A stretch of DNA of 64,000 bases from Dipteris shenzhenensis (lineage: Eukaryota), in NCBI GenBank assembly GCA_047967505.1, contig CM106538.1; one strand, given 5' to 3'. Position 1 is the stretch's first letter; each line of letters opens with the position of its first letter. The notes under the pieces are model-generated. The model did not search any database. It saw nothing but the letters and a program-made list of their open reading frames with translations, and was not told the DNA's origin. The translations under genes were made by a program, and so were the position numbers. Positions 4,772 through 36,534 of this stretch are shown piece by piece.

Positions 4772-4805
<34 letters not shown>

Positions 4806-5609
4806 CCACCTTTGTCCCCGTAGGATATAACACACTAGGTGAGACAGTAAGTCATCACCTAGTGTGATAACCTACTGTCTACCCGAAGAGAATAAGAAGT
4901 ATTAAGAAGTGCAATTTAAAGTAATGGAAATGGAAGAGAAGTACTTGAGTGAGGTAGGTGAATAGTATGGAAGCAAAGAGGAAAACCAAGTTAGATCAGG
5001 GAGTTAAAAAGCCAAATAATGGCCTTGATGACTTAAAGGTCCTATGTGCAACCATCCAAAGTTATAGGGGAAAGCATGTGTGTGTAGTAGACATTTACAA
5101 CACCCCTTTCCATAGTGAAGAGTAGACAAATTTGGAGTAGGAAAGAGAAATGTTTAATAGATAAACTTTGCAATAAACATCACAAAAAGTGAAGTAGCAT
5201 AATTAAAGGATGAACATTTTTTTCTAAAATAGAAAATGTGAGCAGTGAAGCTTAGATAAGTCATTGGAAGCATCACTTTTATTGAAGAGGGGAGTCTGCC
5301 TACCTACCACCATCCAACAAGAAAAATGATAAGAGCCATATTTTAACTTAGTTGAGAAGACAAGTGTCATAGACACCCCTCCCTTATTATCGAGATCACA
5401 ATAATATCGAGATCACAATAAAAAATAGTTGCACACGCTTAAGACTTATAAAGCAAATTTTTGATATTGCACTTTTGAGTGTAATAAAAAGTTGGGGTGT
5501 AGATAGTAGGTAGAAAGGATTAATGTATGTAGGTGTCAGAGGTGCAGAAGGGGAGAATTTGATAGGGTAAATTTATGCAACATTTTCGAAAGAATTTGTA
5601 AAAAAGTTG

Positions 5610-6950
5610 GAAGTTGCAAAGTTCTTAATATGTGTAAGATACATGTGCTTGCAAAGTTTCTCGTAATTTTTTTTGTGCACCATGCGAAAGTGCTCCAAAA
5701 AATATGCATTGTTGTACTTATACCATCATGTGTATGTGTGTATAGTACTTTGCAAAGGTCTTAATATGTGTAAGATACATGTGCTTGCAAAGTTTTGGGT
5801 GATTCAAATATCATTTGGGAGGTAAGGCATGCATAATTTCTAGTTTTTTTAATCATGCACAGTGCTTAAGTACTCCAAAAAATTTGTGTTACTACATTTC
5901 TACCATCATGTGCTTGTGTGTGATGGGTACAATAATTTGTACTAACCTTAATATGAGTAATTTCCATGAGCTCATAAATTTTATCATTTTTGTGGTAAGA
6001 TATATGTATTTCTGTGTTTTTTTATCATGCACCATGCTTAAGTCCTCTAAAAAATATGCAATATTGTTGTACTTCTACCATCATGTGTATATATCCGATG
6101 GATACTATACTTTGCAAAGGTCTTAATATGAGTAAGATTCATGTTCTTACAGAGTTTAGTATGATTAAGATCTCGTTTGTAAGGTAATATATGCATCCTT
6201 TCTAGTTTTTTAATCATGCACCATGCGCAAGTGCTCCAAAAATTTGGTGTTGTTGTAGTTCTACCATCACATGTATGTGCCTAATGGAAAAGATAATTTG
6301 CACTGACCTTAATATGAGTAATATCCATGATCTCATTTTTTTTTTGGTTATTCAGATATCATTTATATGGTAAGATATGCACATTTCCATGTTTTTTAAT
6401 CATGCACCATGCATAAGTGCTTCAAAAAATATGAATTGTTGTACTTCTACCATCATGTGTATGTGTCTAATGGGTACCATAATTTGTAGAGGTCTCAATA
6501 TGAGTACTATCCATGTACTTCCAAAGTCTATTGTGATTTGGATATCATTTTTTAGGTAAGACATGCATAGTTTCTACTTTTTTTATCATTCACCAAGTGT
6601 AAGTACTCTAAAAAACATGCATTGTCGTGCATCTACCATCATGTGTATATGTATAATGGGAACAATTATTTGTAGAGGTTTTAATATGTGTAATATCCAT
6701 GTGCTCATAAAGTTTAATGTGATTCAGATATTATTTATGAGGTAAGAGATGCATAGTTTCTAGTTTTTAAATCATGTACGATGCACAAGTGCTCAAAAAA
6801 ATGTGTGTCATTATACTTCTGCCATCATGTGTATGTATCCAATGGGTACAATCCTCGTACGATACTATATACTGGCCTTAATATAAATAAGATCCATGAG
6901 ATTGAAATTTTTTGTGTGATTTGGATATCATTTGTATCATAAAATATGCA
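5610..6950. repeat. About 185-bp degenerate tandem repeat (about 7 units)
   Basis: Anchor TACCATCATG recurs at about 5721, 5900, 6076, 6262, 6448, 6634 and 6820. Confidence 0.9.
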
Positions 6951-8909
6951 TATTGGGTCATTGGTTGCTTGGGTGTAGCCATTTTTGGTGAGATTTAGGG
7001 AATTTGTTGGATATATGTATCTTGCATGACCCATAACTTATGCTCAACGGAATTTGACAAACTTTTCTCCAAGTTGTAGTACACATTCCAAACTTGAACA
7101 TGAAACCAAAAAATTTTGGAATAACAATTTAAAATGAGACCGTTAAAGCATTACCAATGCTCTGTTGCATGTGAATCATGCATCGTGAAGACTACGGGAT
7201 ATAGCAATTTATTTAAGAACATCAAAATTTTGTTATGTATATATATGCAACCAAGTAATCATTCAAAAGTATTAGGCATGGATTAATGGGCCTCCAATGT
7301 TGTGCTAAAGTGATGCACACCTATTTTGAGGGCACGCTCCATAACATTTTTTTTAATTTGTTGAAAATCATAACAAATTGAAATTTTCGAATCTAACTAG
7401 TGAAACTACTGCATGGTGGTCTTAAAACATTGATAGTTATTGGTATTGGTATTTAGATTCACCCTAAAATGGAAGAAGTTGAAAATGTGTAATTTGTGCA
7501 TGTGCAAAGATCTTTTAATAAATCCAACACTATTTATAATTTTAAATTATTTATTTTTCCATGCACTTGCTTGCTATATGGCTCATAAGCATGCCAAAGG
7601 TCATTGCATTTCATAATACATAGCATCAAACCCGATAGCATGCCCTTTGGGAGCCCTTTGGACTATTTGTGTTTTGAAGCATTTGAGGCCACATTGCTTT
7701 TGTTTGGGATATTATCCAATTCTATTGATGTGTATTGTCGGAGGGATGAAACCGATGGCTGAAAATTTTGCTACTCCCACAAATTTCAAATTTTCATACC
7801 TCCCCTATGCAGATTAAGTACCTACAACCTACCCCTGCCGTGCAACTCGCACGAGCCTCAATGTGACCTTGTGCCATCTTTGGTTTGGCATTGTCATGTT
7901 TTGGGTAAGTTGTCTTCTATTCTTTGCTTGCCTCACAAGCTAGCTTCTCTCTATTTTGGTTTGGCATTGTCATCTTTCATTGATCATTTCCTTGGCACCG
8001 TGTAGCTCACCATGGCTTACAAGAGAAGAAGACAGAGGCACTGATATAGGAAAGATGAAAAGCTTAGTCAAGGCACAAGGACAGATTGCGGGTCGAGGAA
8101 AGAAACGGCACAGTATCAAAACAACAACGGAAGACAAGTTTTGCAACACTTGCAAAGGGAGAAACAACGAGAAGAAATAAGACTCCTTACAGCGTAGCAA
8201 CAGGAAGCGGTTATAGATGCATGCATTCAATCATTGACATTAGAGCAAAGAACACAAGTTGTGAAGCAATAGCCATTCAGGTGAATACCAATCTCGACTC
8301 TTCATAAGCTTTTTCTCGCACCCTAAATTTTGTAGAGTGACAACCCTACCAATACGTCGGGAGATGCACGTAGAGCGGAAGCAATGCCCAATCATCCCGA
8401 TCCGAGCAGTCAACAAAATGTAAGAAAAGGAGAGACAACCTAAGTGCAAAAGTCATTACAATAGTGATGATGTTTTGGCATTTATCTAAATAACAAGGAC
8501 ATCTATAGAAAGTAGATGGGATGCAAGATGCTTGACGAGCACATCATACACATGCTTGATACAATGTAGGTCAGTGATTGCCTAAACCATCCTGGTGGTT
8601 GTTTGTGATTGAGCTTTGGGATAGTTTACTTGTTTCATTTCTTGATACAACACAAGTCAATGGTTGCATGTATGTACGTTGCTCTACTAAAGAAGAGGCT
8701 CATACAAATGACAAGGTATAGCAACCTATCAAACCTGTGTGCTCAACTTTCATGAGTTGAAGGTCGTCTATTGTTTGCATGGATAAACATCCATCGGCAT
8801 AGGATGTAGCATCTATCATAGGCTCATAAAGAAGGAGCTGACAGTGTAAAGGCCTAGAAGCCTAAAATATCACTAAGATAGCATAAGATATCCCTAAAGC
8901 ATTTCAAAG

Positions 8910-11699: not shown

Positions 11700-14183
11700 T
11701 AGCACCATGTTTGTCCTAGTATAAGCTGTTTGGTAAACCATTAGAATTAGATTTACATAACCCAAAGTTTATAGGAGTTGGCCATTTACAGAAATATATC
11801 TGTTGGCAATGAAAACTAAAAATTGAAATACCTTGTAACTTGTTGAATTTAGAAACTATGTTATGATTGGGGAAATTGATAAGGAGTTATTTTCTTGGAT
11901 TCCCGATTAGAGATTCAGCTAGAATTTTCTTAAGCATTAACATGAATGAAAATACAGTCATGATGAAACAATGGCTGCCAGGGGCCTTTCAAAGCTCTGA
12001 CGAAGAATCTTGAGTAGCGGAGATTTACCTTTGACAGTGCAAGCCATTTTTTGGTATCATCTGCAAAATTCTTGAGAACCCCCTGTTTGTAATGGGAGAG
12101 TATTTTGACAGCAGTACCTCCTTTGACCTCCTCATGTTAAGGTGTAACACTACTCTCTTTCCTTGTTGTGATGGCGTTAAGCCTTGCCTCAAGGGTACTA
12201 TTTGTTACCTTGACCTCTTGTAGGGCCAAAAAGTAGGTGAAAGAGAATTTTCTCTCAGCTAACTAGCTATAACTCCCCTCTTGAGGGTTTAATTAACCCA
12301 CACACATTTAGTGTGAGGAAAGAAATAGGCTTACTCACCAATTTCTTTTGCTCCTTTTTGACCTCGGGGTTGGGGCTCTTAGCATGGGCTAAGGCTTCTT
12401 TGTCCTGGGGTAATATCCTCTTATTTTGTATCCGAGGGGTGCACTATTAAGAAACCTAGATACCATGTGCATTCAAGGTGTATTTTAAAAACCCCTTACC
12501 TGTGAATTTTTCTTGGATAAAAATACCCCTTTTTCTATACAAACTTACAGGATTTTTTCAAAGTTCAAATTAAAAATCCCATATGTAAATACATTTTTCT
12601 AAATTCGCCTAAAGTTTTTGAATTGAAAAGCCCCTCCATTTGAACCCACGTTTTATAGATACATATTTCTAGGTGAATCCCCAGGGATTCCATATGACTA
12701 CCAGAGCTTTTCCCTGCATAGTCATGTCTTTCTCAAATTGAGGAGCTACAGGAAGGTCTTCTTTTGAGTCATATTCATTATCCCATGTCAACATCTCATC
12801 TGTCTTAGTAATGTCTTCTTCAAACTCTTTAGACCAAGCACTCTCAACCTCCTCCTTGGGATTCTCAAGCATCTTCTCCTCTAGGTCTTGATCCACAGGG
12901 TTTTTCGAAACAATAGAAGGCTCTCCTTTTCTTTCAAAATTCTCCTTTTTGCCAATACTTGGAGTAGACTGATCTTTTGGGATATTGGTATGCAAGTTGT
13001 CTAGTTTTGAGAGGTTTTGCATGTGGGGTGTCAACCTTAGAATCCACCTTTCATTAGGATTTGTGGGAGGAGATGCAGGAGAAAGCTTGTGGCTTTGGCC
13101 TTCTTAAGAGGACAATTGTTAACTAGGTGGCTTGCAAGGCCACATAGAAACAAGAATTAGGGAAGTTCTTGTAAACAAGATACTTCTCTCTAAAACTTCC
13201 CCTCTCCTGTTAAGTAGGAAAAGAGTGTTGGGTTACAATTCTTTAGCTAAATCAAGCTTAACTTAGACTTGAGGATTACTATGGGGATTAATGACTGTTT
13301 TCTATCTACCCTCAAAATTTCCCCTAGCCAACTATAGAGAGAATTCGCTTTTGATAGCATAGAAGATTGGGTCAGTCTACCCACACTAGAAGTTTGGTTG
13401 ACAAAGATCATCTAGGCTAACCTTGGTCTCTAAGCCTCTAGGTACAAGGGCTAGTTCACTGAAGTAGAACTTGGGCCATAAAATTGCAAAATCAAGGGGA
13501 TTTGGGCACTCGCCCATGTGAGTGGAAGCTTGGCTTTAGTTCCCAAGGGGTTTTGGGTGCTCGCCCATGTGAGTGGCTACCCACATCCACCTGCAACTTT
13601 TTTGAAAGCTGCAACCAAGCTTCCAATGCATGGGACTAAATCTACTACTCAGATTCATCCAATAATTCTCCATGATCAATAACAACTGAGATAGTTTTAC
13701 TTGAACCAGCAGAGCTATTCGTTCATGAAGACTTATCGCCTTGGTTCTAAATGATTCATGGACTCTCTAGTGCTCATTGTCCTCCTCTTGAGGCTCCTTC
13801 TGAGGCTCCTCTTGAGGAGGCTAGTTTTCTTGGTGTTGGTCTTCTACTGCTGGTATTTTTGGAACTCTATGCACCACCCTATTCGGTCTCTATTCTTTAG
13901 CTTTCTCCTCCCTTCGTATCCCGAGTTCTCTATTGTCGATGGTACAACAATTATTGAAATTGGTTTACCTTTGCAGAAGGGTATTCTAAAAGAACCTCTT
14001 TCTGATTTTCGTATTGTGCTCACATAAAAGGCGTGAGATTTAGTACCTTGTAGAGTCGAGCCTGATGCATGTTCTTCGGGGTTCTCAGCATCACCACCAA
14101 ATCTTGGGTATCCATGACCCATAGAATTCTTACCAACCGTCATGGTGATGGGTTCCTATAGAGGCTGCATGGAATAATATAGA
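11700..14183 (-). mobile_element. Degenerate LTR-retrotransposon remnant
   Basis: ORF at 14143 begins with gag-like YPRFGGDAENPEEH (compare IPAFCGWVEENPNEYL at 20071). The remainder is acidic, low-complexity and decayed. Confidence 0.35.
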
Positions 14184-14258
14184 CACTACAAGGCATAGGC
14201 CCTTTTCCGACAAAAATACCGACGCTTTTTACATTAAATTTTTTTTTTTAACGGGCGC

Positions 14259-15247
14259 TATTAGTTAGAAAAGAAATCAAGACAAGAGGCTAGACACTAA
14301 GCATGGTGACGCTCAAGGGCCATAGAGCAAAGGAGAACATGAGGGCGAAACATCATCATGGGAGGGGAAATGGGATTAGAAGGGGAGGGAATGAAGAGGG
14401 AGACTATGGCACAAGGGGAAAGGAAGAGGGGGGAGAGAAGCATGTACATGATGGGAGGAGGAATGTAAAGATGGAGACATCAAGGGAAGAGGGCCATGCT
14501 TTATTTGAAAGGAAGGGAAGGGGGAAATCAAAGTACTAGCTAGGTGGCTTTACAAGAATGAGCGTGTCTCATCAAGGAATAGCCCCCTCCTTTTATAGCC
14601 AAGAGAGGGGGTCTCTCCCAATAATTGCATCCTCTCACATGCATGGTGTGTGTGGAAAAGTCTCCCATGTGGGCTAGGCAGTTACGCACTCTCAATTGTG
14701 TGCGACAACCCTTTGCCTCAATTTTCCACATAAATCAAGCCCCATATCTCAAGTCTATGATACTCCCTTGGTCTCTCCTTAATTTTATAATACGTTCAAA
14801 CCTCTAGGAGGACAAGTGGAGGGTTGGCACAAGAAATCTTGCCACCTCATCCTACTTTCCCCATTATTTAACTTGCATTCTTGGACCTTCTATACCTCCC
14901 CCACATGGGCCTATCCTACATGAAGGGAATAATCCAATATGATATCCATCTCCACCTATTTTATATTACTTCTCCCATGGACTTTGGGCCATATCTCACT
15001 CAATGCAACCTAGGTGGAGGGGTGGCACATGGAGGAGCCATGCCACCTTACATTTTATAATATTACTACCATGGATTATGTACATCACACCTTATGGGTC
15101 CTCTTACGTGGAAGGGTGGCACATGGTCATGCCTTGCCACCTCAACCTTGGGCCCTATGCACACCATATTTTATTATACTATTGCCACACATACAAGCAC
15201 ACACACATATTTATGCCTTTTTTCCTTAGACAAATTTATCCATAACA
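14259..15247 (-). repeat. 3' LTR of the Ty3 element
   Basis: Begins TGTTATG on the minus strand right after the PPT. Minus-strand TATA GCTATAAAAGG at about 14589-14600. Homologous to the 22418-22535 fragment. Confidence 0.85.
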
Positions 15248-15299
15248 GTTCCCCCCCCAAGCAGGGAATGCACAATATTTCCATGCCTGGGTCCATCAC

Positions 15300-16560
15300 G
15301 CACAAATAAGGACTTGAGGTAGTGCTTGTTGATCACCTTCTTGCCATATGGCTCATGCAGCTCTTGAACTTGTATAGACCCATTGCTACGTTCCTTGATG
15401 ACTTTGTATGGACCGGTCCACAGTGGCAGAAACTTCTTATCCATTTGGTGGTCCAATCTATTATCAAAGCATAGCACAACATTCCCCTCAGCAAAGTATC
15501 TTTCCCATCCCTTGTGAATCTTAGCATCCAAGCGAGCCTTTTGTCGATTCTTCTGGATCTCTGTTTGGTGTAGTGCAAGGCATCAAGTTTCACCTAACTT
15601 CTCAAGTTGTACCAATCTGGCCTCTACATGTTCATCTTCTATCATCCTCTGTTCTTATGCCAATCTCAAGGCCGGAATCTCTATCTCTAGTGGTAAAATT
15701 GCCTTAGTACCATACACCAACTCAAAAGGAGTGTCACTTGAAGACATTTTATGAGTGATGTTGTAAGCCCACACGGCTTTAGTGACCTTCTGATCCCACT
15801 GGCTCTCGTTCCCTGTGGCCATTTTTCCCATGGTTTTACAAAGGAGGCCACTGGTCTGCTCTGTTTGACCCATGGATGCTGGATAATAGATGCTAGAAGT
15901 GCGATGATCAATACCCATGCGATTCATGAGTAACTCCACTACTTCATTTAAGAATGGAATCCCATGGTCAGAGACTATTTCCATGGGTGTCCCAAACCTT
16001 GTGCAGATACGTTCAAATATGAAATTTGAAACTGCCTTACCATTTGCAGCAGGGAGGGCGATAGCTTCAACCCACTTAGTGACATACTGAGTGGCCACCA
16101 AAAGATACTTCTTTTTGCCGGCAGTCATGGGCAAGGGCCCCGACACTATTTCCATGGGTGTCCCAAACCTTGTGCAGATATGTTCAAATATGAAATTTGA
16201 AACTGCCTTACCATTTGCAGCAGGGAGGGTGATAGCTTCAGCCCACTTAGTGACATACTGAGTGGCTACCAAAAGATACTTCTTTTTGCGGGCAGTCATG
16301 GGCAAGGGCCCGACAAAATCTATTCCCCACTTCTGAAACGGATGGATGGACATCACTAAGTGATGTTGCCTAGGATGCAAATCCTTCCTAACAAAGAATT
16401 GGCATGGTTCACAGGTTTTGCAATACAAAGTGACATCCTTGAACAGCGTCGGCAAATAGTATCTAGCATGTAAAATCTTCTTAGCTGTATAGTCAAGCTA
16501 TATAGTCACTGGCATAGTGGCCTCCACAAAATCCATCATGATAATGCTTCAATACCTTAG
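15300..16560 (-). pseudogene. Ty3 integrase
   Basis: HDGFCGGH...CKTCEPCQ zinc finger, KWGIDFVGP, IVSDHG, TPFELVYG and GPY/F motif WTGPYKV. Contains an in-frame 171-bp duplication. Confidence 0.95.
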
Positions 16561-16779
16561 GCACTTCATCTGCATCAATGGCCCATTTTAGTACCCCATC
16601 CATGCCTTGACGGTATAACACCCCATCAAAGAGGGTGTAGCGCCTACCATCTCTGCAGATCTTCTTTCTCTCATAGCTAGTACTTTTTGGAGAAAAGGAG
16701 AAAGCAGTCAGAAACCTGTAGATACCACCATACCATGGATCCCCAACTTCTATGGCCGCTACAAGGGTTACATCAAGGC

Positions 16780-17960
16780 ACTCCTCTAAATCAATCAAAG
16801 CATTCTTCAAGTTGGAACAACCCCCTTTTACAATTTTGAAAGAAAAATCATATTCTTGTAAAATTGCCAACCATTTGGCCAACCGGCCCATGGGGTTTGA
16901 TGATTGAAGAACTTGCTTTGCAAGACCAGTGCTAGTGAGTATAATGAAGGACTTTACAGCCACATAATGCTTAAATTTCTCAATGCAGAATGCCAAAGAT
17001 AAGGCATGCTTGTCAACCTCTGAATAGCATCGCTCAGTGTCGAGCAATTGTGGAGAAGCAAATCGAACGGGATACATGAACTAATCCTCCCCTTGCTGAA
17101 GAAGAATGCCTGCCAGAGTGTGCTCACCAAACCCAGGATTGATATAGAAAGTCTTTGACCAATCTGGATTGTGTAGAATGGGTTCTGAAGCCAGAGCATT
17201 CTTGATTTTTTCAAACCCATGATCACAATCCTCATCCCAAGAGAAATCAGCCCCATCTTTTAATAGCATCGTCATGGGTCGTGTCAAAGTAGCATATTGA
17301 TCAATGAAGCGATGATAGTATCCTGTTGGATTGACAAATGAATGTATCTGATGTTTGGTTGTTGGTGGGGAGAGCCTGAGGATGGCTTCTACCTTCTCGG
17401 GTCAGGCTTGATGCACTTAGATGAGACAATATGTCCTAGTAACCTCCCTTGAGTGGCTCCAATGGTGCATTTCTCAGGGTTGAGATTGCCATTCGCATCA
17501 TTGACCCTTTGGAAGGCCAACCTTCATGACGTGCCCCTTACGTGATGAGAATATACAAAAATCATCTAAAAACACCTCCAAGAAATCCCCCAAATAGCAT
17601 CTGCATAAATCTTTGAAAGGTAGTAGGAGCATTGGTGAGGCCAAATGGCATTACTTTGAATGCAAATGTCCCCCAAGGTGTGGCAAATGTGGTTTTAAGC
17701 ACATCTTCTTCGGCAATTCTGATTTGATAAAACCCAAAGTAACCATCATAGAAACCATACATCTCATGACCACTTACCTTCTCAAGAATGAGGTCTTGAA
17801 AGGGCAGAGGATGGTGATCCCTCTTGGTGGCCGCATTGAGTTTCTTATAGTCGATGCAAACCCGCCACTTGTTGTATTTCTTTAGGGTGACTACCACTGG
17901 TGAAACCCATTCAATATTGTGAACCGAAACAATAAACCCACTTTCTACAAGTTTCTATAA
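16780..17960 (-). pseudogene. Ty3 reverse transcriptase and degenerate native RNase H
   Basis: [20 protein letters not shown] and a frameshifted VFLDDF. RH region ALASEPILHNPDWSKTF...GRLAKWLAILQEYDF. Confidence 0.95.
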
Positions 17961-18419
17961 CTCTGAGCACAAAGCATCAGTCTGTACGGGCCCTAATCTC
18001 CGATACTTTTGAGCCACAGGCTTTAGGCTTCAGCTCTATCTTGTGTTCTATGGCAGTCACATGGCGAAGGTGGTGGTAGCTATTTGCGAAAAGGTCAGGG
18101 AAATCTTTGAACATTTCTAGGAACTCATCTTTCTCACTTGGAGTGAGGTCTGGGGAAAGCATAGATTCAAGTTGTTGAGGACTAGCGGCTACCTTTTCTA
18201 TAGGTGGTGGGGTTGGAGACACCCCCATCATGTAAACTTCCTCATCTGAGAACTCCTCCCCCCCATCTGATCCTTCCATTGATTTAGACACCAAGGATGA
18301 GAGAGTATCAGTGTCTTGCTCCTCTTCTTCTTCTAGTTCCGTGGCACCTAGTTGCACCGAGATCTTCTCCTTAGAAGCACCACAAGACATGTGTCCTATC
18401 TTCCAATAGCTGACTGCAT

Positions 18420-20071
18420 CACTCTTTCTCAACCATGGTCTCCCGAATATGGCTAGGTAACTCCACTACATAGAAATTGACGGTGGTGATCAACCCATTG
18501 ACAGTGATGGGCAAATCCTCAATGACTCCCAGGGTGGCGAGTCGTCAACCATCTGCTACCTTAATTCGAGTGGAAGAATGCCTTGTGCATTTCAAATTCA
18601 ATTTCTTCATGATTCGGGGCACCATGATATTACATGCAGCTCCCCTATCAACACACACACTTTTGACACGGCAATTATCTATGATGACATCTATTGTATG
18701 TGGGTGCCGATCAATTTTTTCAGAGATAGAAGATACCTCTTGTACCTTTCCCTTTTTCTTGCTCTTCCTTGTTTAGATCCCTTGCTGCAACTCACATCTC
18801 ACCTTAGGGCTTAAGAGGGGCTTAATGCTATTAGTTGAGGGAGCGTGATGCTCAAAGACCGATGAGCAAGGTCCTAAATGACCGAATAGTCCTCTTGCCC
18901 TAAGCCGATGGAAATTTCAAGGGCGACCACTTACTCCTGCGGGATCTTTTAGTCTTCAATATTGGTGGGTCTGCCATCTCAGCATCTGAGGGCTATGAGA
19001 AGGACAGTTCTTCTTGGGGCAGCCTGGTCCATGGTTTGGAGAGGGGTCCGAGGTGGTACAACTTCTTTTCCCGAGGTCAAGGATCTCTACGTCAGAATCC
19101 TCAGTGCCTGATTTACTCAGAAGATTCACCCTTGGAATATTGGGACATTCCGTGCGATAATGACCCTTCTGGTGGCACTCGTAGCATACAACATTAGCAT
19201 GGTCTCTTGGAGGGTGGTTGGCTTGATTTCTGATGCCCACCATCTCAAGCCGAAGATCATTCAGGGCCTTGGCTAGCTCATTGACTCCGGGTTCTTTTGC
19301 AGGGGGGGCCTCTTTAGCTGGAGGGGTCGAGGGAGTAGAAAGGAGGGGGGCTCGTGGCGAGGTTGGGGAAATCTTTGAGGCAGAGGGTGAGAATATACAC
19401 CTTGTTGAGGGTAAGCATCTAAGCGAGGACCATACATTTGAGGTGGAGGCGGTGGATACATCCTTGATGGGGGGTGGGAGTATGCCTCTGAGTTAGACCC
19501 CCCAGGTTGTTGTTGCAAGAATTGAGGGGGTTGCAGATGGACAATCATCTTCTTTGAAGTGGGGTCAGACTGAACTTTATCAAACTTTTGAGCAATCTCA
19601 TGTGCTAGCACCATAGTTTCTGGATTCTCCCATTTAAGCTTGAGGCGGAATTCATCACTTGCTCCTACTACAAGGTAGCCCAACACATGCTGAGTCATTC
19701 TAGCTCGAAATCTGGCATTGTCCTCCTGCATGACAATTAAACAGTCTAGGAGCACAGCCGCTCGATCCACATATCAACGCGCCATCTCACCTTCTGATTG
19801 CTTCAAGTTTGTCACCTGCAGGTACACATTCTCCGGCTCTTCTTTGCTGAAATACTCAATCATCACTGCTGTCAACCTTGGCCAGCTTTGGCAAACATCG
19901 TTGGCCTACTTCTCATACCACACGAGCCAAACCCTCTAGAAATCTGGGAAGAACCAACAGCCATCTGTCTTCAATAAGAAAGTTGAGAGAAACACAACGG
20001 CACTTGAAGGCCACAAGATACTCATTTGGATTTTCTTCAACCCATCCACAAAACGCAGGAATGTCAGCCAT
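18420..20071 (-). pseudogene. Ty3 gag and aspartic protease
   Basis: MADIPAFCGWVEENPNEYL start, CCHC knuckle CYECHQKGHYRTEC at about 19146-19190, protease VCVDRGAACNIM at about 18650. Frameshifted. Confidence 0.85.
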
Positions 20072-20529
20072 GCTTGGAAAATGGAAAAGAGAGACGAAAT
20101 GAGGCTTATCTATGGGCAAACAATGGAAAGAGGTAGCTTGAACTGAAAATCAGGTGAAGATACATCCACAAAGCACACATACGCAGGGTAGGGTGTCACT
20201 GGTGTATTGTGAAATACTACCCGGGAAGAATTTTCAGCATAGAATAGCTCATAGACAATCTTAAAAGGACCAACCCTCATGATATCATAGGCATCTTTAC
20301 AAGTGAGGGTTCAAGACGTGGCGCTGCATGAGGTTGTTCATCAAGGCAAACAAGAATGCCATGACAAATGTCAACAGTTGGAGAGCTTGCACATCACCTT
20401 CAGCTTCTTCCAGTTCTTGTAGTCGCCATGCTATTTCTTCAAGGGGTGTGCGATGTGGCATCCTTCTTTTGAGAAATGTCCTTGAGGACCTTTCTGATGA
20501 TCTTCCAAAGTCGGTAAACTCGCATCAAA

Positions 20530-21040
20530 TATGCCCAATACTTAGTTTCATGATGACCACAACCTTTGCATTCCTTACAAATGATCACCCTCCTTCATGG
20601 CTTGCAGCTTTGTTGGGGTGGTGCTTCCACTCGCGTCATGCATGATTGAAGTACAAGCTTCATGTGCCAAGAAATCAGCAACTGTATTTTGAGGTCGAGG
20701 GATATGCTAAATTTTTACCTCTTCAAATTGTTGGCACAGTTCCAATGCTTATTGATGTCGTGGAATCAAGCCTTGCTCCGCACCTTCCACCTTCCACTAA
20801 CTTGTTCACACACTAGTTGAGAATCTCCTTGCACCTCAAGTTGCTTGACGTGATGTTCTTGTGCCTTTTGTAGCCCAAAAATGAGTGCCGAGTACTCAGC
20901 TTGGTTGCAAGTACTTGCAGGTGTAGACTGGCTATAACAATACTCCTCACCACCTGGTGAAGTGAGCTTCACACCCACGCCAGCAGCCTTGGTCGAAGGT
21001 TTGTAAGCTCCATCAAATTGAAGGATCCAAGATGTCATCA
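20530..21040 (-). pseudogene. Archaeal-type RNase HI (aRH) ORF with a downstream zinc knuckle, upstream of gag
   Basis: WILQFDGA, CNQAEYSALIFGL, LEVQGDSQLVCEQVSGRWKV, then after a frameshift and two stops HIPRPQNTVADFLAHEA. Followed by CKECKGCGHHETK(Y) at 20538-20579. Confidence 0.9.
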
Positions 21041-22380
21041 CACCAAGACTAAAATTGGGACATCCAAAGTTTCTCGATAGTCCAAGATAGGTAGAAGGAG
21101 AGGGTGGGGAGAATTTAATACTTGAGCCAAACGTTCAGCACCAAATAAACTTGCAATCCTTTGTTGATAGTTTATCTTTAGACCAAAAATAATTACAACT
21201 TGAAGCTCGAAATGAGGCACAAAAGGTTGATTAGGTACAAATGGATTCCTTGGTTGAAACATTACCAACCATAGCCAAGGCCTAGAAACCTTTGTAGTGA
21301 GATTGAGAATAAACCATTCAAGACGAGCTTATCCACAGGAATTAATAGGCAGATGTGCCAAATCTCCCCCCAAGCTTAGGGAGCATCCCACCCTTCAAAG
21401 AAGGACACCCTTTTAATTACCTCCGAAGTAGCAAGTAGCTCGATCACTGCACAATGAGTAGAATTAAAATCAAAGTCCTCCCAGTGTATCACTAGTTCTT
21501 CACCTTGAATCATCCGAGGTGTATCATCCCACCCGTCGTCTCCTTAAACAATGCACTAGACAATCAGCCTTTGAAGGTCGACATGATGATCAAGCAAGAG
21601 ATCTCGCCAATTGGTAGCCGTAATGAGCAGAGGACCAGGCACCAAATCCTTAAACTCGTCGAGAAGTGACATAAATATCCACCCTCCTCACGTGGCATGC
21701 ATCCGTAAAGTGAAGTTGAAAAAGTTTTGAATCGGCGATCTAGTAGGAGATGTGAATAGAGCACATGAAATGAAATACTTTTGCTTTTTACAGCAAGAGT
21801 AAACTCCCCACGGTTAGAGAGTTACAGTTACCGAGATTTCAATATATAAGCAAAAATCATTACATTTTCATCACTTCCTACTTGTTGGCCCAATGATAAG
21901 TCTCCCTTTTGTGAAGGGGGAGGTCTTGGGTTTAAATCCCACTCTTTAATAAAAAGAGAGGAGAGGACAGGAGAAGGAGAAGAGAAAGAGAAGAGAAGAG
22001 AGAGGGGAGGCACGGGATCTGTTATAGTTTTGCAAAAACCCAGAAAAACTGTCCGCGACCAGAAGACACAGGAGCCCAGAAACCATCGCGGTCTATCCGT
22101 GATGCGCGCGGGTGTACATAGTGGACAGCGCAGGAGTTCAGAGGGAGCACATATGTTGTAGTTCTACAGATGCGACCGGTATGAGCAGAAGATTCGCCAA
22201 CCAAAATACACATAGGAACTGCAAGCAGAAAGCAGGCAGACTAAAAGTGCAGAAGTAAGGAGGTTTTGCAGCCGTAAAGACAAGGAAGGCACACAGTTTG
22301 GAGATGCAAAAGTAGAGAACTATGCACGGAAGAGGCCACAGAGCTGCACCCACCTAGGAGTAACAGATTTTACACCACTA

Positions 22381-22413
22381 GCCGTGGAGATTTCGATCCC
22401 AGCAGCCATACCA
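22381..22413 (-). other. Primer-binding site, tRNA-His-like, with extended complementarity
   Basis: The plus strand GCCGTGGAGA-TTTCGATCCCAGCAGCCATACCA reads like a tRNA 3' half ending in CCA, 4 nt from the 5' LTR. Confidence 0.7.
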
Positions 22414-23217
22414 TTTCTATTAGCCGGAAAAGAAATCAGGACAAGAGGCTAGACACTAAGCATGGCGATGCTCAAGGGCCATAGAGGAAAGGAGAACATG
22501 AGGGCAAAATGTTATCATGGGAGGGAAAATGGGAAGCAACTTCTCAAAGAGATTGGATTGAGGAGACAAGGAGAAAGAGGAGGAAGACAAATACAAAAAA
22601 GACTAGAAGAGAGGTGTCTTCTATCTTTTATAAAATCTCGTTTTTTATCTTCAATCCTTTGAAATCAAGCACAAAAACTAGCACATAGCCTTAGCAATAC
22701 TCACAAAACGAAATCTCACAAAAAACGAACCTCCGTTGTTCAAAGAGACTCACCTTCTTGAAATACTTCTTTTCAAGAAAGCGCAGAGGGAGAAGGGTGG
22801 AGAGGGAGCACAAGTGTTAGAAGAGAGGTGAGTAGTGGTGAGAAGTGGAGAATAGAGTGGGAGGTCGTCGGGAATAGGTGGGAGGAGAGATTGTAGCTTA
22901 CAATAGAGATTACTAAAGAAAGCACCGCGCATCGCGAGGTTCGGGTTTTAACCCACAGCATCACTATATAGCGACGCTGGTCAGTCGCTACATAGCGACG
23001 CTAGTCAGTCACTATATAACGACGCTTATATTTAAAATCATCACTATATAGCGACAGAATAGAGCAAATCGTCGCTATATATCGACGGAACAGGTCAAAA
23101 TGTTGCTATATAGCGATGCTTCAGGACACTTCATGTTTAAAGTTAAAAAAGAAGCTCATAGATACTATTTTATAACTGTTAATATATTTCCTTGCAACTT
23201 ATGTTGTGATTTTATAA

Positions 23218-26033
23218 GTGCAGATAGAAGAGACGAGTGGAAGGTCGTCCGATGATGCGCCAATGCCTGGGAGCACAAAGTGGCTTACGGAGAGGTTATA
23301 TTGTCATTGCACTCATTGCAAGCGAGAAGTACGACATCAATGTCATATTATCATGTGCCACTTGCAGATGTATGGGGAGGAGCCCGAACCAGTACCCACC
23401 GTTGGTGTTGCACGTGTTGATGGATTATCGGTAAGTCAAAGCTATTTAAGTTCACGGTTAATATTGGATACCATTATGGTACGAAACCTTGAGACAATAT
23501 CTTATATTTACATGAAATCTTAAAACAGGATGAGGAGGCTGACGAGGGTATGCATATACCTTCACACTTTGAGCATCATATTTGAAGGCAAGTGACTGGA
23601 TTCAAGCTTCGAGGGCGAATGGAGAGGAACGTCCTCCTGGTATGAAGAGGCTATTGATCTTTCACGAGCTTCCTTATTGGGTTCAGTTACAAATCAATCA
23701 TCTCTTGGATCCCATCCATATCTTCAAGAATCTGGGGGCTACTATTTGGGCACACTTGGTTGGTTCCAAAGACTCGAGAGGAGTGCGAGAAGACTTGCGT
23801 GCTATGAATAAGATGTCTCATTTGTGACCCCAAGTGCATGCTGCGGCAAAAGTTGTCCTCCCGAAAGCAACATGGATCCTCTCTATGAGGGAGGAGGCAG
23901 TGGTCAAGGCAGACATTGCCTCTTTTCAAACACCGACAGGGTACATGCATTGCTTGAAAGGAGCATTTTCAAAGGACAATAAGCTTAGTGGACTCAAGTC
24001 CCATGATTTGCACAATGTCTTACAGGTATTCTATGCTGTAGAATTAGTGTACCGATAATTGTGATGCATTAGCGTAATTATGATTATGTTATATTGTTGA
24101 CATGACTTCTTTGTTGCTTTGATAGTTCATCCTCCCAATTACAATAAAAGGGTGCTTACAAGAGATGTTAGAAATGCTATATTCAAGATCAGTGGTATTG
24201 TGAGATATGCTTACTATCAAATCGCATTGATTGCATTTTCTTCAATTTAAGATGATTAATTATGAAAATAATTTTCTTCAATTTAAGCTGATTAATCTGT
24301 AGACTAATTATGAAAATATCTTATGGACATGTGAAATAGGTGGATACCTCAAAAAGAGATCTCCAAATCGAGCATCGAGAAGGCTAGGGTGGAATCCATC
24401 GAAGCCGTATGCTTGCTTGAGAAGCACTTTTCCATGAGCATTATGACAACTCAAGTCCACTTGCTTGTGCACATTGTCGATGAGGTGGCTATTGCAGGTA
24501 CCGTTCATAGTCGATGGATGTTTTTTCTCAAGCAGTTTATGAAAACTTTGAAGGGATTTGTAAGACTAAGAGCAAGACCAGAAGCAAGCATGGTAGAGGG
24601 ATGGCTTGTGCAAGAGTCATTAGTATATATCACGGAGTTTCTTGCATCCACGGATCCTGATATGCTGCAAGCTTGTCATAACAAGAATGATGATCGCATC
24701 ATTGGCGAGGTTCCCCAAGAAAAAGGGATTGAAAGAAATATGAGCGAAGAGCAAATGGAGAAATTCAATAAGTTTTGTATCCTCAATAGCCCTGAGATGC
24801 AGAAGTGGATTGACAGATATGAAGTGGCTAAAGCAGAAAGAATAAATGCAAGAACGAGATTCAAAGTAATGTACGGGCGATCGCAACCATATCCACGGGA
24901 TCTGGCTCTTCTCCCCACTCACATGTCACTTGATTGGCTACAACTGGCTCTACGTAAAGCCGAATGCGATGGAGAGACAATAAACGAGTGTGAGCGAGAG
25001 TTATCATCTGGATGTATGATGCATGTAAGTTTCTTACCTCTTGACGTAATTAAGTAATTATTTGTGGCAATATATGCTATAAAATAGATGCATCTTCATT
25101 GTTTTAATGATGCTCTTTTACAATACAAAAAGTACAGTGCATTATGGTCATATGGACGACATTTGCGTGTGCTACGCATCGATTCAAAGAGAGTCACGTA
25201 TGATTATGGAGTCATGGCTAACTTCACACAAGATAGCTGAGCAAGTGCTTTGGATACCAATCTTCTCTCCTCACACTTGGATTATTGTGAAACCATACGC
25301 GAAATCTATGAAGCTGATTTCAGACGATTTAGTATTTTCATTCTTAATGTAAAATGGTTTAGAACTATTTACAACGGTCCCCATGCAATAGTGAGAAAAG
25401 ATAGTAGCAGATTCTTTGCAATAAACTCCACCAAACATTGGACCAATGAAAGTAATACTTTTGTTCTTCCTGAGCACTGTGAGCAGATGCATACTAATGA
25501 TTTAATTAATTGAAGCTTTCATTTTTAAAGATCCATTAATACATGTACTTAAGCATAATTTCATATATATAATTGACGACATCTGGCACCCATCTTCAAT
25601 ATAGGTGGTTTTTCATCCGGATCGTTCTGATCCAAGATGGTGGTATGTGATCCAAGTTGCACCACGAAGTAAGAAAATTTTTGAAGATAAAGATGTGGAT
25701 ATGGAGATGCCACTACCAATGCCGGATCCAATTGATCTCGATGAATCTAGCGAAGAAGATGAAGATCATAATATGAGCCAAGAGAAAGATGTGCATAATG
25801 ACATCACACGGGAGGAAGATGGAGATCACGATATTGAGGAAGAAGACAACGATCATCAAGAATCACCACACTTTATTGAAGAAGATGATCAAGTACTTTT
25901 AGGTGAACGTACGATGCTAGAGTACGATGATGATCATATAGGAGATCAACTCGATATAGAGCTAGAGATAGACTTGTTTGGCACGTTAGACTTGGCTCAA
26001 GATGAAACAGTTGATGTAAATGCTCTTCATTGA
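23218..26033 (+). pseudogene. CACTA (En/Spm) TnpD transposase, spliced, with the central core deleted
   Basis: N-terminal CHCTHC...HL, IFHELPYW...HLLDPIHIFKN, LSGLKSHDLH, VHLLVH...RWMF...RARPEASMVEGW, VKWF...FVLPEHCEQ/VVFHPD...WWYV, acidic tail. GT-AG introns. The central Tnp2 region is absent. Confidence 0.92.
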
Positions 26034-30615: not shown

Positions 30616-32980
30616 CACTCATGTATGACCAACTTCCATTTTCATCTAAATACCCTTACACATTTTCCACAATCCTCATCACATATTCAACTATTTGCTG
30701 AATAAAACACATGACACTTTACTATGGGTTATCTCTATAGAAGTCAATTGATCTCTCCAAGTCTATGACAAATCATTAAAGGAGATGATGATAATTCCAT
30801 CAAATGGGATTATTGTATGCATATATATGTATGTGTAGAGAATCACAAAGTAGTATTTTACACAACCCACTAATTGCGCAATCTGCAATGCTCTTGTCTC
30901 AAGGATAGAGTTTCAACATGGAAAAAGGTTCTTCCTTCTTTTTTCCCTAATTATTGGTCATTTGTAAAGTTGAACATGCACATTTTGGCATTTTCAAACA
31001 TGCAAAGGTGTGTATTGCTTATCTGTATGTGTTTGATGGTTAAGGCACTTTGAACAAACCTTTGAATAAGTATTTTCCATAAACTTGTATTTTTCCCTAA
31101 GATTTTTATGAAATTGGAGATTGCACAGCCAAAATTTATGAAATCTATGTAGTCATTTGTATGGTGCACCTTGCACATTTTCTCTATGTTCTTCTTTTAC
31201 TTTTTCTCAAGTTTGAGTGCATAACTGCCAAAAAGTTGTGCAATGATATGCGTATATCATAGATGTACATTGTTGTACGTTGCCAATGGTCACGAAACTT
31301 TGAAAAAAACTTTCAATGAGTAAGTCACTTATACTTGAAAAGATTCATAATGATGCGTGTCACGTATATGGTGGGATATGCACATCTTCTCATTTTTAAA
31401 CAAGCTACACATTGCATAAGCACCCAAAACATGTGCATCCATACACTTATACCCAATGTGTATATTGGAGATGGTCACCAAACTTTGCAAAGACCTTTTA
31501 ATGATTAACGACAAGCAACCAATCACCCAAGTTCCCCAATGCTACTCTTGGGCCTTAGAACAATAACCCCTTCCCCATGAGGGAGCTCAGTCAACCAATT
31601 ATTCCAACATTTACTATTTGAAAACTCATTCTATTAAGCCTACATGATCTCAAGTGACATCCCTAAATCATCTTTTAAGGAAATTATAGTACTATACTAG
31701 TAAAAAAGTGGTCCACCTTACTATGTACCAACCCATTTAAAGTTATCATCACTACTCCACCTAAATGGAGTAACTCTAATCCACTCTTTTTACGAAAGAT
31801 GTAACATTGATCCACATTTTGAGCTTAACCCAAGTTACTCCCAAGTCCAATGCAACATAATATGTGGATAACAAATTTTCTTTCCACAAGATAGATCCCA
31901 CCTACTAAAAACTCTTATTCATGTCTACTATCATGAAGGTGCACTAAGAGCTAACTCAATATATTGAGGACATAGCATTATCAACTCAAGTGCACCAAAT
32001 TTCAACCTTATTGGAACGGAGAGCTCTTCTTATGGTCACAAGTAAAAATAATTGATATTGTAAAAGGTGATTCAAGTGGCTAGTCCCTAATTGAGAAATT
32101 TCAAGAGCCACGTAAACGATCCCTTGAAACTGTGATTGCCTCGGAGCTCTCACTATGCAAGTCTGAAACGTTCGAACATTGAACGCTCGGTGATTTTTCT
32201 TGATTATCCACGCTTACGTCGCCTCGTGGGAACCTTGAGGTGACCTTCGTCGACTTTGAACTCACAAGCGATCCTATAAATACACCACGATTGACTAAGA
32301 AACGAGTCACGAGCTCCAACTAGAGGAAAATGAGGCGAGAGACGGCGACTCCCTCATTCTCGCAATTCAACGGCGAGAAAAATGACGATGATGAGATCCA
32401 AATTGTTTCAACGAGCGGCTTCTACAACGATACAAATTGTTTCAACGAAAGATTCAAGTAACCAAAACATGAGCATACGTAGGAGGAGCAGACATTTTTT
32501 GAGTAATTTGAATTTGACTCATCACACCGATTGAACTGCATGGCAGCAGCGAGAAATCCGCGTAAAATGACGTCGTTTGCCTTGCTGCCGTTTGCCTCCT
32601 TGCTTTGAAAACTTGTCCCTTCTTGCAAGCTTTTGACCTGCAGCCAACCCCGCAACCCAACCTGCTCACGAGAAGGTTACAAATAACCTCTTTGTCTCAT
32701 GATCGCCATAGTCAGAAACTAGCTCTGCTTCCATCCTGATCCTGCTTCTTGATTCTGTCCTCCTGCTTCTGATTTTTGTTCCTCGTACAACCTTACCTTG
32801 TCGTGGGGATTACCTCTACCTCTTCCACTCAATCTTTACTAAGTTCATAGCTGCTGCCATCTGTAATCGTCTTTCGGCACAAAGCATTTTGACGTCATAA
32901 TTCTGTGCTGAGGAGCAACCAAGGGCGGACGTAGATCAGTGTGCATTGGTGCAGGAGCTAGTGTAGCCTCGTTAAGGTTG

Positions 32981-33409
32981 ATGTCTTCAAGCAACAAGCT
33001 GCCTTTGTGCGGGCCTTTATGCCTTCTTTTAATCATAGGAATATTATTAGCGCTCCCAGTTGAGTCCCGCAGAATACAATCACCTCCTTACCACCGTTTT
33101 CGAACCCGCCAGAGACAGGAGGGATACATGCCCCAAATCCTCCCCATCTCGCCGAATAGCCAGAGGCCTAGCAGAAGATCGCACGCACGAGAAAACGCTG
33201 ACGGGCAAAGAAGGCTGCTAGACGACACAAATCAAAGCATACCAGCTGCGGACCTGGCACCAAGGTTCTCTAATCGCAAAGTCCTTAGAACTGTTGTTGA
33301 CCAACGGCAGGCTGCCTTCCAAGCTGCAGTTGCTCATTTCCAATTCGACAGACTGAACACTCCAGGTTCAGGTCCAAACCCTGGAGGCAATTCAATACCA
33401 GCGCCGTGA
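32981..33409 (+). CDS. Secreted small-peptide precursor with an atypical CLE/TDIF-like C-terminal motif (142 aa)
   Basis: Intact single exon. Signal peptide LCLLLIIGILLALPVES, C-terminal RLNTPGSGPNPGGNSIPAP. Confidence 0.85.
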   Translation: MSSSNKLPLCGPLCLLLIIGILLALPVESRRIQSPPYHRFRTRQRQEGYMPQILPISPNSQRPSRRSHARENADGQRRLLDDTNQSIPAADLAPRFSNRKVLRTVVDQRQAAFQAAVAHFQFDRLNTPGSGPNPGGNSIPAP

Positions 33410-35658
33410 TTGTGTCAAGGACTCAATCACAAAAGATATATAGTCTTTGCAACAAGGTAATCCAATCCTTCACGCCATTCTGCAAATTTCTGCTTTTGGA
33501 AGCTGAAACAAACCATGCGAGACGACAGGGCTATTCTTGATTTAGACGAATCGATCACTTAAAATAAGTTCGCAGTTGGTTCAAACAATGTACTGTGTTA
33601 AAATAAGTTCATTGTACAGTGTCCTTTTTGGGATAGCCCGTAAGTTAAAATCTTCCTTCAATTTTGCGGCAAATTACATGAAAGAAAACCTAGAAAATTT
33701 GTGAATGACTACCCCAAAAAGGCGGTTGTGAGGAGATGCTTGTATTATTATTCCAAGAGTTGGTGGAATTCTAAAAGCCTAATTATAGAATCTATCTAGG
33801 TAGAATTATACATACATTGTAAGTAATGGATGGCAAACTTCTTCATATATCTTGTACTTCTACTCTCCTACGATAATGGACTTTGTATTTCTAACTACAA
33901 GTTATAGAATTTTAAAACCTTGTCTCATAGGAAGGTCCATAGTTTATATGATGAAAATGATTTGAATAAGGTTAACAAAGACATTTCGATCTTATTATTC
34001 TGGAAGTTTTCTATGCAACAATTCTTTGAAACAATGATTCATTATGATGTCTGAGTGAATAAACAAGTAAGATTTTCCAATTTAAAAAATAATCGATTCC
34101 ATTCACATATGACAAGGTACAAAACTATTAAGAATCCATGATTGATATGTCACTATCCAATATTGTCTCAATGAGAATAGTCAAAAGATTTTGAATATGA
34201 CTTATTTTATATTTTTACATGCTTTTTGGTATTTTTCCAACGTTATGTTGGCCCTCTTCTGATTGGTTGAGAGCCTATTTTTCAAAACCCTAAAAGGCCC
34301 CAAAATGAGCTCCCTTTTTTCCTAATGAGATTTAATAATTATAATGAAAGAAAGGGAAGAGGGGGAGGGGGGGGGTGTTTCAATGAACATAATGTAAGAG
34401 AGGGGAGGGGGAAAGAAGGTAATTTTAAGGAAATAGAGAGGGGAGGGAAAAAGAAGGTAGGGAAAATATACATATATAAAGAGAGAGAGAGAGGGGGGGG
34501 GAGAGAGAGGTAATTAGAGTACGTAAGAGCCATAGAAAAACCATGAAAGATAGTGCTAAGTGAAATTTAAGGTACAGTGAAGGAAAGGGGAGGGGGGTAA
34601 TTAGAGTATGTGAAGTGAGGAAAAAATCATAAGAAGAGCGCGATAGAGACCTAAGAGTCCATGACGAGGTTTGAGAAAAGGGCGGTACCTCGAAATGCAC
34701 ACACACATAGAAATTCGAATGTGCCATCTTAAAGTGGCTTTGTGAAGTGTGCTGCTAGCACGGTGCAGTGGCAAAAGGTAGGAGAGTAAGGAGTGAAGGC
34801 TGTGAGGTTTTTATTTTATAGAAGAGAGATATAGTTGGGTTAGGAGTCGAGGAGGTGAGAGGTCTAGGGGCTAGAGGAAGCGAAAGAGGCACGCATTTGT
34901 GAGGCATATAGACTACAGCATGGACGTGAGAGAGGCATGTAAAACGAGGTGTTTAGACTGTGTAGTGAGGAGAGTGAAAGGGGAAAAGAAAGGGTGATGC
35001 ACGTGGTGATCAAAGCTTAGATAGTTTAAGTAATTTTTAAATTTTAAACAATAGCATAGACAAATACCATTAATTCGTAGAAAAAATAAGGGATTTAAGG
35101 GGAAAGTAGAAAAAATAGGAAATTTAAGGGAATTTAGAAAATAAGGGAAGCGGGGGGGAATTAGAAAACAAGGAAAAAAATTAAGGGAAATTAAAAGAAA
35201 GTTTGGGGACTTAAGGGAATTAAGGGAGACTAGGGTGAAATAAATAGTTGGGGTGGAGATAGTCGGTACAAAAGATTAATGTAATAAATAGATAGTAGGA
35301 AAAGAACAAATTAGGAAGAAAAAGAAAGAGGAAATAAATAGGAAAATTAGGATAAATTTGAAAAACATCATGAAATAAATAGAGAGAAAAATTAAAGGAA
35401 CTAATTAGAAAAAAATATGAAAAAATAGAAAATTTTATGAAATACTTAAGAGGAAAAAAGGAAAGTTAAAGAAAATTAAGGAAAAACTAAGGAAAACTTA
35501 ATAAAAAACCAGAGAGAGAGAGCGAGAGAGAGAGAGTTAAATTAGGGAGAGATTAAGAGGAGAGTAAGGGAGTTTGAGGAAAAAGAAATTAGGAAAATTA
35601 AGGGGGTTTGTCGAGGGGAGCTCTAATGAACAAGTGGTAAAACCAATGGAGGAAGGGA

Positions 35659-35660
<2 letters not shown>

Positions 35661-35744
<84 letters not shown>
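35661..35744. repeat. (GT)42 microsatellite
   Basis: Pure GT run. The paralogous run at 4774-4803 has 15 units. Confidence 0.95.
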
Positions 35745-35746
<2 letters not shown>

Positions 35747-36534
35747 CCACCTTTGCCCTAGTAGGATATAACACACTAGGTGAGACAATAGGTCATCACC
35801 TAGTGTGATGACCTACTGTATACCTGAAGAGAATAAGAAGTATTAAGAAGTGCAATTTAAAGTAGTGGAAATGGAAGAGAAGTAGTTGAGTGAGGTAGGT
35901 GAATAGTATGGAAGCAAAGAGGCAAACCAAGTTAGACTAGGGAGTCAAAAAGCCAAATAACGACCTTGATGACTTAAAGATCCTATGTGAAACCATCCAA
36001 AGTTGCAGGGGAAAGCATGTGTGTGTAGTAGAAATTTACAACACCCCTTTCCATAGTGAAGAGTAGACAAATTTGGAGTAGGAAAGAGAAATGTTTAATA
36101 GATAAACTTTGCAATAAACATCACAAAAAATGAAGTAGCATAATTAAAGGATGAACATTCTTTTCTAAAAGAGAAAATGTGAGCAGTGAAGCTTAGATAA
36201 GTCGTTGGCAGCATCACTTTTATTGAAGAGGGGAGTCTGCCTACCTACCACCATCCAACAAGAAAAATGATAAGAGCCATATTTTAACTTAGTTAGGAAG
36301 ACAAGTGTCATAGACACCCTTCCCTTATTATCGAGATCACAATAAAAAATAGTTGCACACGCTTAAGACTTATAAAGCAAATTTTTGACATTGCACTTTT
36401 GAGCGTAATGAAAAGTTGGGGTGTAGATAGTAGGTAGAAAGGATTAATGTATGTAGGTGTCAGAGATGCAGAAGGGGAGAATTTGATAGGGTAAACTTAT
36501 GCAACATTTTGGAAAGAATTTGTAAAAAAGTTGG

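Follow-up and report, generated by a model that had tools for sequence, protein, structure and literature searches.

Organization of the element

The window (the whole stretch of 64,000 nucleotides of DNA that was analysed) contains reverse transcriptase (RT), RNase H (RH) and integrase (INT) domains in the Ty3/gypsy order, all on the minus strand. Pfam identified these domains in the three sense frames, each translated with X in place of stops. As the preliminary description had it, the archaeal-type RNase H (aRH) belongs to a Ty3 element. Between 20071 and 15226, the coding sequence is fragmented into many pieces lying in three frames. A partial RT core is located at 17586-17882 (RVT_1, E = 1.2e-12, or 2.4e-14 on the open reading frame), followed at 16850-17239 by the native RNase H, which is 'tether'-like in that its catalytic core is degraded (RT_RNaseH_2 at 17239-16940, E = 5.2e-21; RT_RNaseH, E = 1.3e-15). 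The integrase, composed of zinc-binding and core domains, occupies 15655-16497. Integrase_H2C2 and rve were matched at 16479-15880 with E-values of 1e-4 and 1.6e-13, respectively, and the corresponding values on the open reading frame were 7.6e-06 and 1e-16. A 171-nt tandem duplication (15971-16311, 96% identical) is present in the integrase core, in which about 57 residues are repeated and two rve matches are obtained. No chromodomain was matched at E <= 0.01 in the three sense frames of 14200-22600 or in the open reading frame 15229-15582, which for a decayed copy is weak evidence.

An aspartic protease was matched weakly at 18461-18691 (Asp_protease_2, E = 0.0031; gag-asp_proteas, E = 0.0037), under the curated cut-offs. 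The presumed gag (19145-20071) consists of pieces in three frames. It is assigned by its position and a single CCHC knuckle (19186 to 19145), and its presumed ATG start at 20071 is assigned by position alone. The window has a single full CCHC pattern, at 19186 in the presumed gag, where zf-CCHC was matched at E = 0.0055, under the curated cut-off. No gag or capsid family was matched by Pfam.

The element is flanked by a single pair of direct repeats. The 5' terminal repeat, an LTR or LTR remnant, lies at 22417-22590 and the 3' terminal repeat at 14258-14439, both read on the minus strand. Their best-matching cores (22417-22534 and 14258-14375) are 118 nt long and 90% identical, and a gapped local alignment extends to about 180 nt, reaching 22590 and 14439, respectively. 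Neither TG..CA ends nor a target-site duplication was found at the element termini. No purine tract directly precedes the 3' repeat, and a purine-rich tract is present just after the pol stop, near 15214-15227. Contigs of three public DNA runs (X1, X2 and X3) were placed on 13500-23500 at a likeness of at least 80%, giving 564, 786 and 150 contigs, respectively. The public contigs cover about 14168-22851 and little beyond, which agrees with the limits of the element. Their depth drops to about 0-7 below 14168, and the summed contig depth at 13500-13833, outside the element, was 0, 0 and 0.8 in X1, X2 and X3, respectively. As an alternative to short repeats, the element could have a 3' LTR of about 950 nt and a truncated 5' LTR, a reading based on the purine-rich tract at 15214-15227 and on the higher X1 depth over 14168-15169. 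An X3 contig that diverges into unlike sequence at 22601 favours the short repeats. The alignment of the two repeats is limited to 118-180 nt.

A site resembling a primer binding site (PBS) was read from the sequence at 22394-22413 on the minus strand. The PBS proposed earlier at 22413 holds as a TGG-initiated site located 3 nt past the repeat, but it was matched to no tRNA. No tRNA gene was found in the window by ARAGORN. No Rfam family was found in the window at the gathering score, and none in 19900-22700 at E <= 1. The PBS-like site is followed by a long 5' leader (21039-22393) that is covered by public contigs and has no Pfam domain in any sense frame. The stretch from 22416 to 21039 measures 1378 nt and contains 21 ATG triplets. 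The leader is followed by the aRH gene remnant, and a spacer of 503 nt with 16 ATG triplets (20072-20574) separates the aRH stop from the presumed gag start.

The aRH gene and its state in this copy

The aRH domain is located at 21038 to 20575 on the minus strand, which is the sense strand of the element. This agrees with the preliminary description, which placed it between the PBS (22413) and the start of gag (20071). The gene remnant (20575-21038), a broken counterpart of a 154-codon open reading frame, was delimited by its RVT_3 match and by alignment to the sister protein P0010. On the open frame 20766-21134, Pfam gave RVT_3 at E = 4.1e-16 and RNase_H at E = 3.5e-06. When stops were translated as X, the RVT_3 profile was matched from position 2 to 105 at 21017-20709 (E = 2.9e-15) and, in a second frame, from position 90 to 123 at 20757-20656 (E = 6.5e-04). 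Pfam found no second RVT_3 match in the three sense frames of the element, and tblastn with the sister protein found this single aRH copy in the 64-kb window.

The first 89 residues of P0010 match the stretch from 21038 to 20772 without a stop, and 81 of them are identical. Residues 84-154 align to 20796 to 20578 in a different frame, with in-frame stops at the codons starting at 20751 and 20709, and the same alignment puts the natural aRH stop at 20577-20575. The aRH of the window is therefore a pseudogene, whose frame changes once near 20772 and is interrupted by two stops. The aRH had been described beforehand as complete; the domain is real and all four motifs (FDG, AEY, GDS and NxxAD) are encoded in the window copy, but the reading frame is broken.

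A CX2CX4HX4Y 'knuckle' (20545-20590, minus strand) had been described along with the aRH. It shares the frame of the N-terminal part of the aRH. The intact sister open reading frame thus runs in a different frame and has its natural stop, at 20577-20575, before the knuckle, which was rejected as a feature. Translation of the window in six frames gives nine occurrences of the loose pattern CX2CX4H.

The label 'archaeal-type' is right, since P0010 matches the structures of Halobacterium RNase HI (4e19, E = 2.8e-17), Mycobacterium tuberculosis Rv2228c (3hst, E = 3.3e-16) and Sulfolobus tokodaii RNase HI (2ehg, E = 2.3e-11).

Intact sister proteins

Sisters of the aRH were identified among public proteins of 67-214 residues, in which nine of 20 candidates matched with 73-91% identity. 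The two best matches head clusters of 25 and 8 members. Fourteen of the 23 cluster members listed are full-length proteins of 154 residues, all of them distinct, and the other nine are 78-145 residues long. The 14 intact open reading frames each have their own start and stop and are 89-99% identical in pairwise comparison; they were predicted on short contigs, a procedure biased towards open frames. D9, E48 and D72 are invariant in all 17 aligned sequences, as is D122 in all 15 sequences that reach it. Among the 14 full-length proteins, 20 of 129 core positions are variable versus 10 of 25 tail positions (Fisher p = 0.01). To judge from these predicted proteins, an aRH with the D-E-D-D residues appears to be kept intact in many sister copies, unlike in the window copy.

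P0018 contains about 210 nt of the last part of the leader in frame before its RNase H, with 47 of 70 residues identical. Since P0018 carries the leader of the window in frame, the upstream context in that copy is the same. In sisters such as P0010, RVT_3 and RNase_H are the only domains recorded. No close fused form of the aRH was found among proteins of 159-2000 residues from short contigs, in which nine of 37 candidates matched at 40-45%. The earlier proposal that the aRH is supplied as a separate protein is supported by the 154-residue open reading frame of the family, which has its own start and stop and no close fused form.

Sister copies in public DNA runs

Part of the stretch is contained in 14 of the 22 public runs listed, with a best share of sampled words of 0.18, and no RNA run is listed among these 14. 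In one small DNA run with 17,770 contigs, 564 come from the element family. In the two bins covering the aRH (20514-21181), the summed contig depth was 77.9 and 40.1 in X1, 91.6 and 68.5 in X2, and 9.0 and 10.7 in X3. The corresponding values in three gag bins (19178-20179) were 99, 115 and 58 in X1, 32, 32 and 61 in X2, and 7, 2 and 13 in X3. The summed contig depth of the aRH, which is not equal to copy number, is in the range of the gag and most pol bins. The RT-core bin (17508-17841) had a depth of 2111 in X2, compared with 15-250 elsewhere in the element, and many loose ends fall at 17604-17666. Many other Ty3 families are also matched there by the conserved RT core.

A 1027-nt X3 contig covers 20153-21178 with 51 differences, and an X2 contig links 20259 to 18866. 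The contiguity of the aRH gene with the gag start is supported by these two contigs, at 20153-21178 and 20259-18866, together with unbroken depth, no contig shown bridging both alone. Among the joints listed, which are those of the longest contigs, none deletes the whole aRH gene, and two lie within it: a 129-nt skip (20556-20686) and a 9-nt skip (20921-20931), each in one X2 contig. Sister contigs in all three DNA runs show a one-letter length difference at 20772-20775, the site of the frame break in the window. For this reason, the frame break near 20772 is probably private to the window copy.

The RNA run X17 gave only seven reads, all less than 90% alike, partial on the stretch and mostly in the conserved RT bin. 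The search for sister DNA in JGI metagenome contigs gave one unrelated match (33% identical), and that in viral contigs gave none. The gene is carried by contigs of the three DNA runs and by clustered sister proteins, which argues that the aRH is common to sister copies rather than a one-off fragment.

Native RNase H domain

The native RH, read through its one stop, aligns to the Ty3 RT/RNase H structures 4ol8 (E = 8e-12) and 7q5b (E = 8.8e-11). At the first three of the Ty3 columns that we take to be the catalytic D-E-D-D, the window encodes G, D and S, and the fourth residue is non-acidic. Related pol fragments were found in seven matches among 225 candidates. They are only 58-78% identical to the window and may come from a sister subfamily. 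The related copies P0040-P0045 have G, E and N at the same columns and then the same non-acidic fourth motif, and part of the native RH domain is missing in both P0040 and P0041. As read from these alignments, the native RH seems to be devoid of three of its four catalytic carboxylates in the window and in the related copies. As the related copies also lack three carboxylates, the loss would belong to the wider family and extend beyond this decayed copy. A native RH degraded in a 'tether-like' manner has been reported in every aRH-bearing Tat structure (PMC10508981), a pattern that the present losses match.

Relatives of the aRH

The aRH gave 14,423 matches at E <= 1e-3 among 1.84 billion representatives. 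None of the 150 matches listed is above 48% identity, except for the family members P0012 and P0018. Twenty of these 150 (the top 10 and 10 long ones) were scanned with Pfam. Seven of the 20 (P0047, P0053, P0060, P0077, P0079, P0097 and P0184) are 543-728 residues long and combine a SAP domain at the N terminus with RVT_3 domains repeated in tandem two or three times. One of the 20, P0094, is a piece of a retroelement pol, a Tat-like fragment with RT_RNaseH_2 followed by RVT_3 that shows 36% identity to the aRH. Look-alikes of the aRH in the ESM Atlas were generic bacterial RVT_3 clusters only. The phylogeny of aRH has been called unresolved, and single and multiple captures are inseparable from the aRH tree (PMC10508981). 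Independent capture of the aRH, which the preliminary description had considered possible, is neither supported nor excluded by the present results.

Other features of the window

Transposase-like open reading frames on the plus strand (23200-25100) adjoin the 5' side of the element. One of them contains DUF4218 (E = 4.6e-22), which we take to be a domain of plant CACTA/En-Spm transposases. The end of a Ty1/copia-type gag with a CCHC-like knuckle and a protease start is located at 48317-48859 on the minus strand (Pol_BBD, E = 5.5e-09).

The stretches 3376-8907 and 32067-41130 are 92-95% identical in the same orientation, with about 5.5 kb aligned in three blocks. They represent either a second repeat family present twice or a segmental duplication. 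Arrays of a tandem repeat of about 180 nt, 70-82% alike, are present at 5647-6950 and 36571-37878, inside the duplicated stretches, and at 47644-47960.

A host-type gene at about 52900-54900 on the minus strand encodes a thaumatin domain (E = 1.2e-46) and a protein kinase domain (E = 1.2e-32), both identified by Pfam. The two domains lie in different frames and a stop is present within the kinase, which points to an intron-bearing gene or a pseudogene. Its kinase motifs presumably have more in common with L-type lectin receptor kinases than with kinases of the PR5K type.

Identity of the element

The locus is probably one dead member of a multi-copy retrotransposon family, a Tat-like Ty3/gypsy LTR element whose layout is the one published as structure #4, or 'pre-capsid'. 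The best explanation of its organization is a layout composed of a 5' repeat, a PBS, a long leader, a 154-codon aRH gene, a spacer of about 500 nt, gag, PR-RT-(dead RH)-INT and a 3' repeat. The element agrees with Tat in the four features tested and is called Tat-like here, as RT phylogeny, the defining criterion, lies outside that basis.

Biryukov & Ustyantsev 2023 (PMC10508981) described structure #4 for two clusters, Tat B from mosses and Tat C from Selaginella tamariscina, and the pre-gag aRH layout was reported in that paper from four mosses and one clubmoss. The available text of Prokopeva et al. 2026 (PMC13468544) names the layout 'pre-capsid' and attributes its discovery to the 2023 paper together with Wang et al. 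2021 (New Phytol). The available text of the REXdb paper (PMC6317226) gives three aRH positions, each within the polyprotein. The position of the aRH before gag had been put forward in the preliminary description as a new placement. It has been in print since 2023 and belongs to a lineage already catalogued, structure #4 of PMC10508981.

Since the layout is already in print, the locus leaves known retrotransposon architecture unchanged. Its value is that of a worked example, in which a dead native RH is accompanied by a free-standing RNase H of 154 residues that is apparently kept intact in many copies. A further reading, which we hold to be possible and rather doubtful, is that the host is a plant beyond the four mosses and one clubmoss, and that the family is abundant and recently active there, with many intact 154-codon aRH genes. 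A host outside mosses and Selaginella would widen the taxonomic range of structure #4, and the family would provide a tractable natural system for an unlinked RNase H that serves a retrotransposon with a dead RH. In a bolder variant of this wider-host reading, the aRH may have been captured independently in that host.

Proposed function of the aRH in the family

In live members of the family, the small aRH protein is predicted to supply RNase H activity in trans during reverse transcription. Its tasks would include degradation of the template and processing of the PPT and primer. The native RH would persist purely as a connection ('tether') domain with a structural role, like its retroviral counterpart. 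The aRH would reach the particle by binding to RT or the tether, to Gag or to nucleic acid; since it is fused to neither Gag nor Pol, its entry would have to proceed via such binding. Gag-Pol would be translated past the aRH open reading frame via reinitiation, leaky scanning or a processed RNA. Plain scanning seems unlikely because of the 21 ATG triplets in the leader and 16 in the spacer, some of which may have been added by decay. How a separately encoded aRH domain could function is a question raised in PMC10508981.

Alternative explanations

The aRH open reading frame could also be a passenger of the whole family, present in all copies, idle in retrotransposition and open only because the copies are young. 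The sister open reading frames are 89-99% identical to one another, so many of them could be recent copies of one master, and PMC10508981 itself asks how such a domain could work. However, the native RH seems to have lost three of its four carboxylates in the window and related copies, so that some other RNase H would be needed, and the variation among sister proteins avoids the catalytic core (20 of 129 core sites versus 10 of 25 tail sites) and leaves D-E-D-D unchanged. An idle passenger is accordingly given a small probability. A convergent origin is slightly more probable and still unlikely. In this case, a non-Tat Ty3/gypsy lineage, or a Tat branch devoid of aRH, would have captured a host or LINE RNase H and set it before gag. 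The aRH has no relative above 50% identity outside its own family among the matches listed from the 1.84 billion representatives, and the inability of the aRH tree to separate single from multiple captures (PMC10508981) leaves room for such an event. Against it, Tat structure #4 has been published with exactly this layout and with a native RH that is likewise degraded, repeated captures were judged unlikely by the same authors (PMC10508981), and the relatives listed include the Tat-like pol fragment P0094 at 36% identity.

A single insertion could also have nested a fragment in the leader of this one element, derived either from a plant LINE (its 3' end) or from a cellular RNase H gene. Plant L1 elements and cellular RNase H1 bear the same RVT_3-type domain, and the window copy is broken. 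The aRH is, however, carried by sister contigs of three runs and by 33 clustered sister proteins, P0018 links it to the same leader, and the sister open reading frame is compact, starting and stopping on its own. In none of the sense frames was RVT_1 or another domain of a LINE found upstream. A one-off insertion is thus highly improbable. An L1-type 3' fragment, for which a non-LTR RT immediately upstream, a poly(A) end and a single insertion would be expected, was rejected as the source, as the leader upstream has no RVT_1 and both gene and leader are common to the sisters. A cellular RNase H1 gene, which would be low in copy number and would usually bear a hybrid-binding domain at its N terminus, was also rejected, as the aRH is multi-copy and embedded in a retroelement, and its sisters show only RVT_3 and RNase_H. 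The preferred reading remains a dead copy of a Tat-like family in which the aRH gene is a regular component.

Comparison with known systems

Tat structure #4 is the closest known system. Like the element, it has a separate aRH open reading frame 5' of gag on the sense strand, a degraded native RH and the Ty3/gypsy order of domains. Absence of a chromodomain is also shared, none having been matched here. Unlike the structure #4 reference, the window copy is pseudogenic and its terminal repeats are very short (about 120-180 nt).

In Tat structure #3, or 'post-integrase', of conifers, Cycas and Ginkgo, the aRH is likewise encoded by its own open reading frame outside pol, and the question of how such an RNase H could act is the same. 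This open reading frame is located after the integrase in structure #3, whereas the aRH of the element is located before gag. The angiosperm elements Ogre and Retand (Tat structure #1) and the dual RNase H of retroviruses combine a dead native RH tether with an acquired catalytic RNase H, and the same combination is proposed for the element. In structure #1 and retroviruses, the acquired RNase H is fused in Pol right after the tether, whereas that of the element would be an unlinked protein of 154 residues.

A sense open reading frame between the 5' LTR and gag is also present in Ogre (ORF1) and as extra open reading frames of other Tat elements, according to the available text of PMC4408406 and PMC6317226. 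The Tat extra open reading frames described in the available text of PMC4408406 (2015) are homologous to the plant mobile domain or transposase 28, whereas that of the element encodes an RNase H. The archaeal-type RNase HI proteins (4e19, 2ehg and 3hst) belong to the same sequence family and have the same D-E-D-D residues as the aRH. These proteins are cellular enzymes, whereas the aRH is borne by a retrotransposon and has a variable tail of about 25 residues.
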